The position numbers and the translations under genes were made by a program. Below the pieces are notes generated by a model, which was not told the origin of the DNA, searched no databases, and saw only the letters and a program-made list of their open reading frames with translations. A DNA stretch of 63,957 bases, filler included, from Planctomycetota bacterium (GTDB lineage: Bacteria; Planctomycetota; Planctomycetia; JALXBF01), in assembly GCA_026991575.1 (NCBI GenBank). It is 7 parts of 7 records of this genome, joined end to end, with 100 filler letters (N's around TTAATTAATTAA, not from the genome) between each part and the next. Parts side by side here need not be neighbours in the genome. Positions count along the whole stretch, not along the records: positions 60,395 to 63,957 come from JALXBF010000165.1; 6 more parts are not named here. One strand, 5' to 3'. Of the stretch, positions 60,395-63,957 are shown piece by piece; positions within the stretch are counted from its first letter, which is position 1, and each line of letters starts with the position of its first letter.

Positions 60395-60701
60395 GCTCCC
60401 GCCTCACCGACCGCCACGCCAGCACCATGTACTCCATCATGCGGCCCAGCATGTCCTGCTCCACGGTGCGGGTGAACTCAAACACCACCACCACGTACCG
60501 CCCCTCCACCTCCGCAACCCACACCAGGTCCGCCAGACGCGATCGGTCCGCACGCCGACTCACGTGGCCTTCCGCTGCGCGATAGAGGTTCTGAATCGGC
60601 ACCGGCCGGTCCCACAGGAGGCGGAAGAGGACCGACAGCAGTTCCATGACCACTTCGGGGTTGGCGAACAACTGTCTGTAGGCTTTGTCATGCATGCCCA
60701 T
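60395..60701 (-). CDS. Rpn-family (YhgA-like PD-(D/E)XK) nuclease, N-terminal part
   Basis: HDKAYRQLF, RLADLVW and VVFEF...DM..RMMEY motifs. Confidence 0.8.
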
Positions 60702-60878
60702 CGTCCGCCACCGTCAGTTGTCTTGTAACAGTGAGTTGTAGCCGTATCGCAGACTCCTGCTGGTGACCTGGTCGGTGCAGCCGTGGCTACGGTTGGCCGG
60801 CCGCAGGCGGCTCTGTTCCCGCGCCCGGTGTACAGTTGGGCGTGGGGCGGGGTTGGTGGTTGTCATGGTGAGTGCTTA

Positions 60879-60895
60879 TGGCACATGCCGTGCCA
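60879..60895. promoter_or_regulatory. Palindromic sigma54-like (-24/-12) or transcription factor site
   Basis: TGGCAC-ATGCC-GTGCCA reads TGGCAC-N5-GTGC on both strands, with correct GG-N10-GC spacing. Confidence 0.45.
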
Positions 60896-61289
60896 AAGTG
60901 GGCGGCAGGTGCGAGGCATGGATGCATGTCGTGGTGTGGTAAGGCGTTATGGTAAACGCTGTGGCGGCGTTAGTCGGGAAATGACGGTGAGCGCGCGCCG
61001 CGCGCGCGGCGCTGGTCGGACAGGATGAGGCTCGGTTGTGCTGCGTAGGGATGGCACGGCGGGCGGTTGGGCTGGTGGGCCGATCGTTTCGATCGGCCGT
61101 AATTCCGTTTGGCCGGTCGGCTCGAGACCGGCTGTGAAGCCCAGTGTGCGTGGGCGCTGCCGGAGATGATCTGAGCCTACGGGGATGCGCGTACACCCGA
61201 CGAGAGGGGTGTATCTTACCCCGTGCGTGAGGGAGGTGGTTGCCTTTTTCGTCTTTCGCGTTGGCGGGTCGGTTTCGGGTGCGCTGGCA

Positions 61290-61457
61290 GCTGGTTTTGC
61301 CGGCGTCGGAGGACGGTTCACCTCGCCAGCTACCGCGAACTCGCGGCAGGGGGGCTTCATGCCCCCGACCGCGCTGTTGATGGGTAGCGCGGGCGGTACG
61401 AGCCTTGTTTGTTCTTCCGCCATGAGAACCCCCCTGACGCCGCGGACGGCGATCCGC
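61290..61457 (+). repeat. Fifth copy of the REP-like repeat, on a different contig
   Basis: GGGGGGCTTCATGCCCCC then TGTTGATGGGTAGCGCGGGCGGTACG (identical to 50747-50772) and GACGCCGCGGAC. Confidence 0.8.
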
Positions 61458-62103
61458 ATGGTGCTGGGCGGACTGGAGCGAACCAGAGCACTCAACCGAC
61501 AGGAGAAGCGACCGCTCAGGAGTCCGCGAGGCAGAAGCAAGCGAGGAAGCGGGGTAATGCCTGTGGAGCAAAAGGACGCAGGAAGGCGGAGATGACAGGA
61601 AAGCGGAACGGCGGGTGGTCCCTACGGTGATTGGCCGGCGAGGGTTAGGGAAGGTAAAGACGCTGGAGCGAGGTACTGGCGGAAGCCATGGAGCTAGAGG
61701 TTTGTCTGCCGGCTGCCCTGGTGACGGGATGTGGGACGGTTAGGTCCCATCCTCGAGTGGGTTGGCGCGCCTGGATGCAGCCCGAGCAGAAGGTCTATCG
61801 GTCCTCTTTGGGGCAGGGCCGCCAATCGGAAAGCAGGATGCCGATGAACCACGCCGAGGGGGCAGGTTGCGGGCAACCGGGCCTTGTCACCCTGCATGTT
61901 CGAAGCAGGCTGCGCGAAAAGTTCATCTTCTTTCTTCGCCTGTCACCGAGGGCACGGCGGGTACCGCCCCAACTGTTGACGCGGCGCCGAAGCACCGCAT
62001 CGGCTGGTCCGGTGTGCCGCAAAGGCTGAAGCGTACCCGGATGCAAGAGCCGAAAGGAACCTGTGTGGAGCAGGGGCGGTACTCCGGTGCCACTGCTTGC
62101 CTG

Positions 62104-63545
62104 TTAGCGGAACGTGGCGAAGACCTGGAAGCGGCGCTCCCCGACCACGTTGGTAAAGAATGGGCTGATACCGATACGTACATAGCGGCGGTCGTGAGAG
62201 ACAACGGCGCTGACGGCCATGCCGGCACCGTCGAAGACGGGGGCAGGGATCGGTTGGTAAGCAATCGCGCTGCCGAGCGCGACCTGGTACAGGTGTCGGG
62301 CCCCGCGGTAGCGGCCGCCGTATCGCTTCAGGAAGCGGTCTAGTTTGGCCAGAGGCATGACCAGGTGCGTGGCCCACCGGCCAGTGTGCGGGTCCATTTC
62401 CAACTGAATGTGCGGAACGTTTGCCAGCTCCGAGCGGCGGCCGCGCGGCAGCTTCACAAGCACAGGTTCTTGCTGGTCCACGATGGCATAGTGCACTTCC
62501 GTCTGCTCCGCCTCGGTGCCCTGCCAGCGGGTTACCTCGATCCGCACGCGATTGCCGAGCACATTGCCCCAGACTTTCTTGCAGAAGACCTGGTACACAC
62601 CCGGGAACGCTCTCGGGCAGATGTAGATTTCCTCGGGGCGCTGCCCCATGCCGTCCTGAACCAGGACGCCGCCGGCAGCCGTGCGACGGTTTCGTATCGA
62701 GCACTCCGTGCCGATCGGTTCCAGCACCCGGACGTCGACGTCGGCCTCGCCCTGCCAGGTCACGCGGATGACCAGGTCTCGCTGGTCAGCCTCACGCACA
62801 GCCATTCGCAGCTGAGTGGCACGTTCCAGGTCGCCGTTGCGTTCGAGCTTGCGCACCATTTCCTCCACGGCCGCGTATGCCAGCCGGTGGAGCCGGAAGT
62901 GATCTTCGCGCCACGCGCGGCTAAGCAGATTGGTGGCTGCCCACTCCAAGGCATCCGGATCGTCCAATTGCAATGCCAACACGAGAGCTTTCTCGTACGG
63001 CTGGGCGACGTCGGGCGCGAGGGCCGCAGCGCGGCGCAACAGGTTCAGGGCGGCCCGATGGTGTCCGAACTTGGCCAGTTGCTCGGCTACACGGTAGAGC
63101 GACAGCGGTGAGTCGGAAATCGAGTCCGCCGCGCTCAAGAGCGCCTCCTCCACCTCACGGTCCGGATGTCCTGCTAGCCGCAGGACCATGGCCAGGGCCT
63201 CGTACATCCACGGCTTGGCCTTACCCTCACGGATGGCCGTGCGAAGTAGCTCTACCGCATGCCCGTACGCTTTGTGCCGCACGAGCGTCTGGAGCAGGAT
63301 GCGGACCGTGCTTTCGGTGATCCGGTTGCCGTGTCGCTGGAAGAAGCGCGGCCAGAACGTGCGCGGGTCGCTGCGGAGCATTGCCTCGATGGCCGCCTTG
63401 CGTCGCTCGGCAGACACTTTGCGCGGCGATCCCGGCCGAGCGGGCTCGGCCGGGCCAGACGACTTGGGCTGCTTGGGCGCTTGGGCATCCTGCCGCCGGG
63501 GTCGATCCTGCGCCCCCTGGTCTCGGGGACCGACCCCGGCTGCTA
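62104..63545 (-). CDS. TPR-like plus YfaP/DUF2135-like domain with secretin-like beta-hairpin; probably the -1-frame C-terminal part of the upstream gene
   Basis: KPWMYEAL, DLVIRVTWQGEADVDV...EP.GT.CS and YQPI...SAVVSHDRRYVRI motifs; frame stays open to about 63738 with no ATG/GTG upstream of the GTG at 63417, which has no clear RBS. Confidence 0.8.
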
Positions 63546-63552
63546 AGGGTTT
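63475..63552 (-). promoter_or_regulatory. Candidate programmed -1 ribosomal frameshift signal (slippery heptamer plus pseudoknot)
   Basis: A_AAC_CCU (63552-63546) then UAG; stem GCCGGGGUCGGUCC/GGAUCGACCCCGGC (63540-63527/63508-63495); loop GGGCGC (63515-63510) complementary to GCGCCC (63480-63475). Confidence 0.7.
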
Positions 63553-63956
63553 ACGTTGGCCAGCGTGCGCACTCGTTCGCCAGAGCCGCGTGCGTCGCTG
63601 CGCAGGCCATCCAGCGTCTCTTTCACCTTGCTGTGACCTTCCTCGCTCTGGCGGATGATCAGGGCTGGAGGATTCGGGTAGTACCGGATGGTCCCTTTCC
63701 CCCCGTTCTTTTCCCAGCTTTCCGGCTCAACGACCTCCTCAATCAACTCGATCAGCTCGTCGCTCAGGTCGTCGCCCTGAGCTGCTCCCGGGGCGGCCGG
63801 GCCGGCACCGGTTGGCGCACCGCCGGCCGGCATGTTCCGGAAGCCAAAGCCACCCAGACCGCCAAAACCACCACCAAGGCCGCCCAGACCACCAAAGCCG
63901 CCGCCAAGACCACCGAGCCCGCCCAGGCCACCAAAGCCGCCGCCAAAACCACCACC
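63543..63956 (-). CDS. C-terminal (zero-frame) part of a large planctomycete protein: Gly/Phe-rich linker plus secretin N-domain (NolW-like) segment; 5' truncated by window
   Basis: GGGFGGGFGGLGG repeats, then LIELIEEVVEPESWEKNGGKGTIRYY...LIIRQSEEGHSKV..TLDGLR. Confidence 0.8.
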   Translation of the reverse strand, partial: GGGFGGGFGGLGGLGGLGGGFGGLGGLGGGFGGLGGFGFRNMPAGGAPTGAGPAAPGAAQGDDLSDELIELIEEVVEPESWEKNGGKGTIRYYPNPPALIIRQSEEGHSKVKETLDGLRSDARGSGERVRTLANVNP

Positions 63957-63957
63957 C

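Follow-up and report, generated by a model that had tools for sequence, protein, structure and literature searches.

The contig JALXBF010000165.1 of a Planctomycetota bacterium carries on its minus strand an upstream open reading frame (ORF), termed U, and a downstream part in the −1 frame, termed D, which in this lineage are very probably joined by a programmed −1 frameshift, as judged from sequence comparison. The data support a view in which U and D represent the halves of one gene, whose protein would comprise ~1,350–1,600 residues. The contig (G000:C165, 3,563 bp) forms positions 60395–63957 of the whole stretch of 63,957 nucleotides that was analysed (hereafter the window), which is not one genome stretch but a set of seven contigs (C52, C56, C85, C86, C89, C91 and C165) joined via N runs. 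The window's genome, G000, is a metagenome-assembled genome (MAG) of 4.96 Mb in 191 contigs, and all features described for the locus lie on the minus strand. Homologues were searched in 61 Planctomycetia genomes (G000 plus 60 relatives), with f1–f10 denoting families; G001 belongs to the family and G002 to the order of G000. A metagenome scan provided two new junctions, L075 and L076, in addition to copies of the contigs of G001 and G002. The junctions of the window's type are represented by five distinct sequences (G000, G001, G002, L075 and L076) from two related families (f1 and f2).

U is interrupted in the window by the contig end within a Gly-rich repeat. Its 3′ end (63543–63956) consists of 137 codons and a TAG and encodes the end of this repeat and a small secretin-N-like domain, while its N-terminal ~830 residues are found on another contig (G000:C181:62-2563). 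The frame terminates with GTA AAC CCT TAG, the last two sense codons providing the slippery heptamer A_AAC_CCU (63546–63552) as proposed −1 slip site. The 0-frame stop UAG (63545–63543) follows directly 3′ of the heptamer and is TAG in all five junction sequences; equally constant is the length of the spacer between heptamer and stem, which reads UAGCA (63541–63545) in the window and comprises 5 nt throughout. The −1 frame contains no stop between 63726 and a TAA at 62106–62104 and extends over 482 codons when counted from the heptamer. It encodes a low-complexity linker (63418–63545) without ATG, GTG or TTG, which aligns with the linker of single-frame orthologues, and the conserved D module (62104–63417; 437 codons plus TAA). 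The earliest possible start codon of the −1 frame is a GTG at 63417, directly ahead of the conserved D domain.

Within the 184-nt overlap of the two frames A_AAC_CCU is the sole in-phase X_XXY_YYZ heptamer. The same holds for the other four junction sequences, each of which contains one in-phase heptamer per overlap, always formed by the last two sense codons, on a background of 5 in-phase heptamers per 1,047 codons (3 of these sites are counted among them). A_AAC_CCU is identical in G001, L075 and L076, whereas G002 carries C_CCU_UUU at the equivalent place (GTA AGC CCT TTT TAG). The junctions of L075 and L076, whose D parts are 42–43% identical to that of G000, read GTA AAC CCT TAG, and 30 nt around the junction are identical between G000 and G001 although their D is only 60% identical. 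A homopolymer of ~8–9 or more A/T is absent at the window's frame junction, the longest A run in the overlap being 4, which makes polymerase slippage unlikely there. A pattern scan of genome contigs yielded 24 matches, two of them being the gene itself (the G001 and G002 contigs) and 22 chance occurrences in unrelated taxa. Heptamer, stop, spacer, stem and loop complementarity were all recovered as given in the original prediction, and the junction is confirmed as a real feature and not an artefact.

The proposed stimulator is a hairpin at 63495–63540, composed of a 5′ arm (63540–63527), an 18-nt loop (63526–63509) and a 3′ arm (63508–63495). Its 14-bp stem (13 Watson–Crick pairs and one G-U pair), predicted earlier to lie 5 nt past the heptamer, is indeed present and recurs at the same position in all five sequences; compensatory substitutions affect four of its pairs (read from the alignments). 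Pairs 1–6 are invariant, whereas variation occurs at pair 7 (G-C, G-U or C-G, with an A-A mismatch in L076), pair 9 (C-G or U-A), pair 12 (U-A, G-C or C-G) and pair 13 (C-G, G-C or U-A); the f2-type stems contain a 2-nt bulge. A hairpin of 13–14 bp represents the minimum-free-energy structure in each of the five sequences, with local z-scores from −1.8 to −3.9. For G000 the 66-nt local fold reaches z = −3.89, and none of 200 shuffles was equally stable. A scan of 63380–63620 against Rfam matched zero families at E up to 1. Just past the hairpin (GGCAGGATGCC), an ATG in the U frame opens a 78-aa ORF (63252–63488, minus strand) conserved in G000 and G001, which is most likely a by-product of conserved RRQDA coding or of RNA sequence and no gene.

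The second part of the predicted structure fared less well. The loop sequence GGGCGC (63515–63510), separated from the stem by a single A, can pair with GCGCCC (63480–63475) located 14 nt past the stem, giving a possible pseudoknot stem 2 (63475–63515). The “viral-style pseudoknot” of the original prediction could not be substantiated for the window sequence itself, in which the second stem is at chance level. In G001 the equivalent helix is 7 bp long at the same 14-nt distance, a length reached in only 35 of 2,000 shuffles, so that retention of stem 2 in the nearest relative is suggestive. The f2-type sequences offer differing 6-bp options 24 or 41 nt away, and shuffles attain the respective lengths in 65 (G002), 333 (L075) and 594 (L076) of 2,000 cases. 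Register and distance of stem 2 are not conserved between the two families.

In the mechanistic scenario that we propose, most ribosomes would halt at the UAG at 63545–63543 and release a short isoform of ~965 residues with the VWA, TPR, STN, Gly-rich and secretin-N-like regions. A fraction would slip back one base on A_AAC_CCU and add 480 further residues, i.e. the linker, TPR, beta-sandwich and secretin-like hairpin, to yield a long isoform of ~1,445 residues in total. The 14-bp hairpin might pause the ribosome, as it would be placed at the mRNA entry channel when AAC occupies the P site and CCU the A site. The A-site tRNA-Pro would thereby move from CCU to CCC and, in the case of tRNA-Pro(GGG), exchange a G-U wobble for a G-C pair. 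According to standard wobble rules, pairing becomes better in the A site (CCU to CCC) and poorer in the P site (AAC to AAA). The tRNA genes of G000 include Pro(GGG), two copies of Pro(UGG), Pro(CGG) and Asn(GUU). A precedent for the motif is provided by the Escherichia coli data cited below, in which C_CCU is a frameshift-prone tetramer and the pattern of C_CCU_UUU ranks among the efficient heptamers. We infer that the shift is ribosomal and tandem, as we do its efficiency, and that the short:long ratio would matter for an envelope or secretin-associated assembly; a fixed isoform ratio might conceivably even set the stoichiometry of a complex.

Several observations weigh against this scenario. 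A_AAC_CCU is non-canonical (Y=C), and a P-site tRNA-Asn(GUU) facing AAA would form a wobble G-A mismatch. Although 61 of 64 heptamers were positive in Escherichia coli with the IS3 pseudoknot as stimulator, the sister motif A_AAC_CCA was among the three that failed; A_AAC_CCU was not one of these (Sharma et al. 2014, PMC4066793, in the parts of the paper available). With regard to the hairpin, the fold of G000 in a 106-nt context reaches only z = −0.85, with 39 of 200 shuffles equally stable. Moreover, the 5′ arm of the stem doubles as D-frame code for LAAGVG/LAAGLG, and part of the conservation of the arms may originate from protein constraint since they are D-frame coding. When the downstream 60 nt of G000 are shuffled, a helix of at least 6 bp between the loop and downstream sequence arises in 1,302 of 2,000 cases. 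Finally, the junction sequences number only five, all of them taken from MAGs or metagenomes, and they represent two related families.

A related ribosomal alternative, which we consider unlikely but which is the most serious competitor, dispenses with the tandem slip. Here, a lone peptidyl-tRNA-Pro on CCU (tRNA-Phe on UUU in G002) would slip by −1 while a slowly decoded UAG occupies the A site. The available parts of the E. coli study, which rank the tetramers combined with the IS3 pseudoknot as A_AAG >> U_UUC > U_UUU > C_CCU = C_CCC > A_AAA and place H_HHU_UUY, the pattern covering C_CCU_UUU of G002, in the efficient class, characterize C_CCU and U_UUU as frameshift-prone (PMC4066793). Such a slip is also attractive because it sidesteps the poor re-pairing of tRNA-Asn from AAC to AAA, and it is in line with a stop that follows the last sense codon immediately in all five junctions and is always TAG. 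However, the spacer from the last sense codon is constantly 5 nt in both motif types, which fits the tandem slip on A_AAC_CCU or C_CCU_UUU. Furthermore, in the usual geometry of −1 programmed ribosomal frameshifting, CCU in the P site would leave the stem 2 nt past the A-site codon and hence partly unwound.

The reading as a single gene is supported by the distribution of the locus. A full-length D match is present in 60 of the 61 Planctomycetia genomes, and the remaining one, G025 (f4, 99% complete), returned only a 46-residue secretin-like piece. Outside the class the gene is rare: of 144 further Planctomycetota genomes, only 3 gave a match (E up to 1e-15). The open frames around the D match are bimodal in size (~450–600 or 1,229–1,621 residues), and D constitutes the C-terminal ~430 residues of the long ones. 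The frame relation could be assessed in 58 of the 60 genomes, G003 and G046 being left out because of contig ends; in G003, the contig begins inside D, the junction was not found and nothing U-like was matched apart from the secretin paralogue. U and D lie in one frame in 28 genomes (8 of f4, 12 of f7, 5 of f8, 2 of f9 and 1 of f10), whereas D is in the −1 frame in 29 (2 of f1, 1 of f2, and 13 each of f5 and f6) and in the +1 frame in one (G004, f3). The −1 offset thus applies to 29 of 30 split genomes, and likewise to L075 and L076. The census genomes include kin and are not independent; nevertheless, the junction sequences differ widely among families. Together with the heptamer and hairpin in all five junctions of the window's lineage, these counts give a positive answer to the question posed with the original prediction, namely whether some planctomycetes have a fused form of the gene and others a split form with −1 overlap, slippery heptamer and 3′ structure.

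An alignment of 16 proteins, with an X marking the break where split genes were joined, remains colinear over the junction and reveals the order 'VYPVADLVIP', Gly-rich region, optional small domain (DLSDELIELI...), linker and D. The small domain is found in f1, f2, f7 and f8, and in the one-frame proteins of f7 and f8 the frame runs uninterrupted through small domain and linker, exactly where f1 and f2 require a shift. In G004, which alone represents its order, the last codons of U read CGT CCC TTT TGA and D resumes seven codons on in the +1 frame (G004:C71:1-600; L071/L105). In this single MAG, the arrangement reflects either a UUU_UGA site prone to +1 shifts or a homopolymer error of one base within a one-frame gene.

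It appears very unlikely in view of this census, although some features of the locus speak for it, that U and D are separate genes, with D starting at the GTG at 63417 or at a non-standard codon, the one-frame forms being fusions and the hairpin an intergenic regulatory or stabilising element. The GTG is positioned directly ahead of the conserved D domain of G000, and the linker of G001 contains an ATG and a GTG; a measure of independent initiation of D may therefore occur in these two genomes, to the detriment of a strict frameshift. A weak start context is uninformative in this respect, as planctomycetes often lack Shine–Dalgarno sequences. In addition, the metagenome contig Ga0194132_10022604 contains a stand-alone D-like gene (L078, ~90–460; 35% identity) that possesses an ATG and a signal-peptide-like N-terminus of its own, and no U is found within 460 nt upstream; D can accordingly exist alone, which likewise counts against an obligatory junction. 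However, the candidate starts vary in position. In 9 of 27 split loci no ATG, GTG or TTG exists between the shift site and the D domain, and in the remaining ones the candidates are scattered and not aligned; L003, L075, L076 and six loci with a run of nine A (A9; see below) have none. The statement of the original prediction that D has no convincing start therefore holds in so far as candidate starts are not conserved in relatives, but has to be amended by the existence of the GTG at 63417. Separate genes would also be expected to share the −1 offset in approximately one third of the split genomes rather than in 29 of 30, and they would not account for a slippery site that is always located at the end of the overlap.

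The programmed frameshift is further substantiated by the substitution pattern. Between L075 and L076, which align free of gaps, 20 of 29 differences upstream of the stop fall on third positions of the U frame and 63 of 89 downstream of it on third positions of the D frame, indicating that the coding frame switches at the junction. Even in the linker past the hairpin, i.e. ahead of the conserved D domain, the differences are distributed as 4, 1 and 7 over the D-frame codon positions (7 of 12 at the third; small numbers), which speaks against two separate genes. The concern about a single-base assembly error, raised with the original prediction, was addressed by a contig of the sequencing run X1 (Logan, 1,302 nt, depth 31), which was assembled independently but may stem from the source sample. 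It covers 62654–63955 with one substitution (63771) and no indel and, like the window's contig, ends in the Gly-rich repeat. Among the sequencing runs only X1 covers the junction; the short parts from X2–X4 stop short of it, and no RNA run with the stretch was found. D is free of stops, and its 26-sequence alignment contains 15 invariant columns. A split produced by an assembly or sequencing indel or by pseudogene decay, for which one might cite the 3.5-kb contig of a 191-contig MAG ending in a repeat, the extra frame anomaly of G211 and the indel in the Gly-rich repeat of G213, is for all practical purposes ruled out by the same junction in five independent sequences, the agreement with X1, the stop-free and conserved D, and the third-position bias on both junction sides.

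In the sister families f5 and f6, the same gene is recoded at an A9 run, which had been missed by the original prediction. All 26 f5/f6 genomes of the first sample contain exactly nine A, 0–27 nt ahead of the U stop, and so do two metagenome contigs. A second sample comprised 30 f5 and 30 f6 loci, 8 of them repeating earlier genomes. Of these, 56 combine A9 with D in the −1 frame (53 assigned by script; L119, L123 and L128 by eye), and L145 (G254) has A10 with D in −1 as a result of a C-to-A change beside the run that leaves the frame unchanged. Two f6 loci, L164 (G277:C33) and L167 (G245:C25), possess A9 with D in +1, one base being absent just past the run, and L141 (G211, a 74%-complete MAG) has A9 but would have to shift once more between the run and D. 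L123 (G213) shows an additional indel within its Gly-Met (Gly-rich) repeat. Altogether, 77 of the 78 distinct f5/f6 genomes carry A9 and one A10, with D in −1 in 75. The codon phase of the A run is 1 in f5, and 0, 2 and once 1 in f6. A hairpin at a fixed distance downstream of A9 was not found, 18 of 24 z-scores being above −1.5. A fixed run length in any phase, shifts in both directions and the absence of a stimulator suggest that recoding in f5 and f6 most likely proceeds by slippage of RNA polymerase rather than of the ribosome; the A9 site of Thermus dnaX and the chlD cluster offer precedents (PMC3711429). The +1 arrangement of G277 and G245 fits polymerase slippage, which adds or removes A, and not a −1 ribosomal slip.

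The relationship between the two devices was analysed in a quick IQ-TREE phylogeny of 55 D domains with Shimodaira–Hasegawa-like approximate likelihood ratio test (SH-aLRT) support only, in which G003 was labelled by family. The families with the hairpin (f1 and f2) form a clade (support 96) that groups with f3 and the one-frame families f7 and f8 (94), apart from f6 (A9), f5 (A9) and the one-frame f4, f9 and f10. The hairpin site is positioned after the small domain, whereas the A9 sites occur ahead of that position, right after the Gly-rich region. As the devices reside at different places, the hairpin and A9 devices would most simply have arisen independently. On balance we lean slightly towards a core Planctomycetia envelope gene equipped with at least two, perhaps three, recoding devices at the same domain boundary, which would reflect a repeatedly selected short/long ratio. 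These would be a bidirectional A9 run, a ribosomal A_AAC_CCU-UAG site with hairpin, and possibly a +1 CCC_UUU_UGA site in one lineage. If so, the gene would show that efficient Y=C heptamers occur naturally in bacteria.

The architecture of the protein is only partly accessible to profile searches. Pfam detects an N-terminal VWA domain (VWA_3/VWA, residues ~60–250) in U of G001, G002 and G017 and in three fused proteins, with E-values from 1.3e-7 to 3.9e-19, and none in the f5 U (G031). A VWA domain is expected in G000 as well, where C181 carries the N-terminus of U and is 58% identical to U of G001. The seven U and fused proteins searched gave TPR matches in four and sub-threshold STN matches in two. 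Judged by eye, the U proteins start with a signal-peptide-like stretch. For D and the U fragment of the window, Pfam and NCBIfam returned nothing at cut-offs, the Secretin_N match in the U fragment being weak (E 0.24), and the full Pfam Secretin domain (PF00263) matches neither D nor the U fragment nor the seven U/fused orthologues. A structural model of D based on the 26-sequence alignment (predicted local distance difference test score, pLDDT, 85.4; predicted template modelling score, pTM, 0.72) contains twelve helices forming a TPR superhelix (residues 3–210), a beta-sandwich (213–323), a low-confidence stretch (338–395) and a hairpin (398–421). Foldseek with this model as a whole retrieved only generic TPR proteins such as MamA.

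More specific information was obtained from a paralogue, G000:C43 (7878–13199), with an open frame of 1,773 residues, a long N-terminal helical repeat region and a Pfam Secretin match at E 4.2e-19. C43 is 39% identical to U of G001 over residues 419–945, the C-terminal small domain of U matches the domain ahead of its Secretin domain, and D residues 376–435 (60 aa) align inside the Secretin domain itself with 58% identity (E 5e-20). Paralogue and model together corroborate the earlier domain guesses, namely a small secretin-N-like domain in U, and TPR, beta-sandwich and a 60-aa secretin-like C-terminus in D. A function as an exported, secretin-associated envelope component is suggested by these features; the gene neighbourhood, which differs between G001 and G017, gave no functional clue. 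A further U paralogue, a 624-aa open frame at G000:C45:15231-15977, matches U residues 692–945. Elsewhere in the window, between 22682 and 60394, the junctions between contigs are pairs of 44-N runs.

To our knowledge, only a few non-mobile bacterial genes contain a conserved programmed frameshift, among them dnaX, prfB, cdd, copA and chlD. The present gene occurs in 60 of 61 genomes, which implies that annotation probably splits it or marks it as broken in about half of the class. As in-frame forms, an A9 run and a heptamer with hairpin exist side by side, it provides a natural system for studying the origin and replacement of recoding signals, and its secretin paralogue, VWA domain and exported N-terminus point to an unstudied planctomycete envelope component. 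No description of this recoding was found in the literature; it is not mentioned in the first 300,000 characters of PMC5009743 or in bioRxiv 10.1101/2025.10.02.679949. The supplementary GeneTack cluster tables of PMC3711429 might list the gene, although the survey included only 2 Planctomycetes genomes.

The junction shares its basic layout with orfA-orfB of IS3/IS911, in which an X_XXZ_ZZN heptamer likewise lies close to where the upstream frame ends, accompanied by a nearby 0-frame stop and, after a brief spacer, by a strong hairpin or pseudoknot on the 3′ side. There, too, a short product and a fusion are made (for the IS3 pseudoknot and the stimulators of IS911, see the available part of PMC4066793). 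However, those are genes of mobile elements with A_AAA_AAG as the usual motif, whereas the present one is chromosomal, occurs as a single copy, encodes an envelope protein and is conserved throughout a bacterial class, with A_AAC_CCU (or C_CCU_UUU) and a stop immediately past the heptamer. A second parallel is dnaX (tau/gamma), also a chromosomal gene, which encodes both a complete and a shortened subunit. According to the sections of PMC3711429 available, E. coli employs −1 frameshifting on A_AAA_AAG and Thermus thermophilus transcriptional slippage on A9 to the same end. In dnaX as in the present gene, lineages thus differ in using ribosomal frameshifting or polymerase slippage at A9 for the same outcome. 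In contrast, the shifted frame of dnaX ends the protein early, while here the shift would add 480 residues; the protein families are unrelated, and the ribosomal variant proposed here lacks an A/U-rich motif. A third relative is chlD (the 'magnesium chelatase' cluster of frameshifted genes), likewise non-mobile, in which a poly-A −1 shift joins two modules in many genera, with efficiencies of 10% for A7, 40% for A9 and 63% for A11; the same available sections mention no hairpin-type variant of it (PMC3711429). The families differ, since chlD places a ChlI-type ATPase ahead of VWA, whereas VWA is at the N-terminus of the upstream part in the present gene. Within the same genome, the C43 paralogue shares the architecture of STN, 'VYPVADLV', Gly-rich region and small N-domain as well as the 60-aa stretch; yet it has a complete Secretin domain in one frame, while the present gene contains only the 60-aa piece, carries VWA at its front and TPR and beta-sandwich in D, and is recoded. 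The mechanism is of a known kind; the gene family is new and unusually informative.

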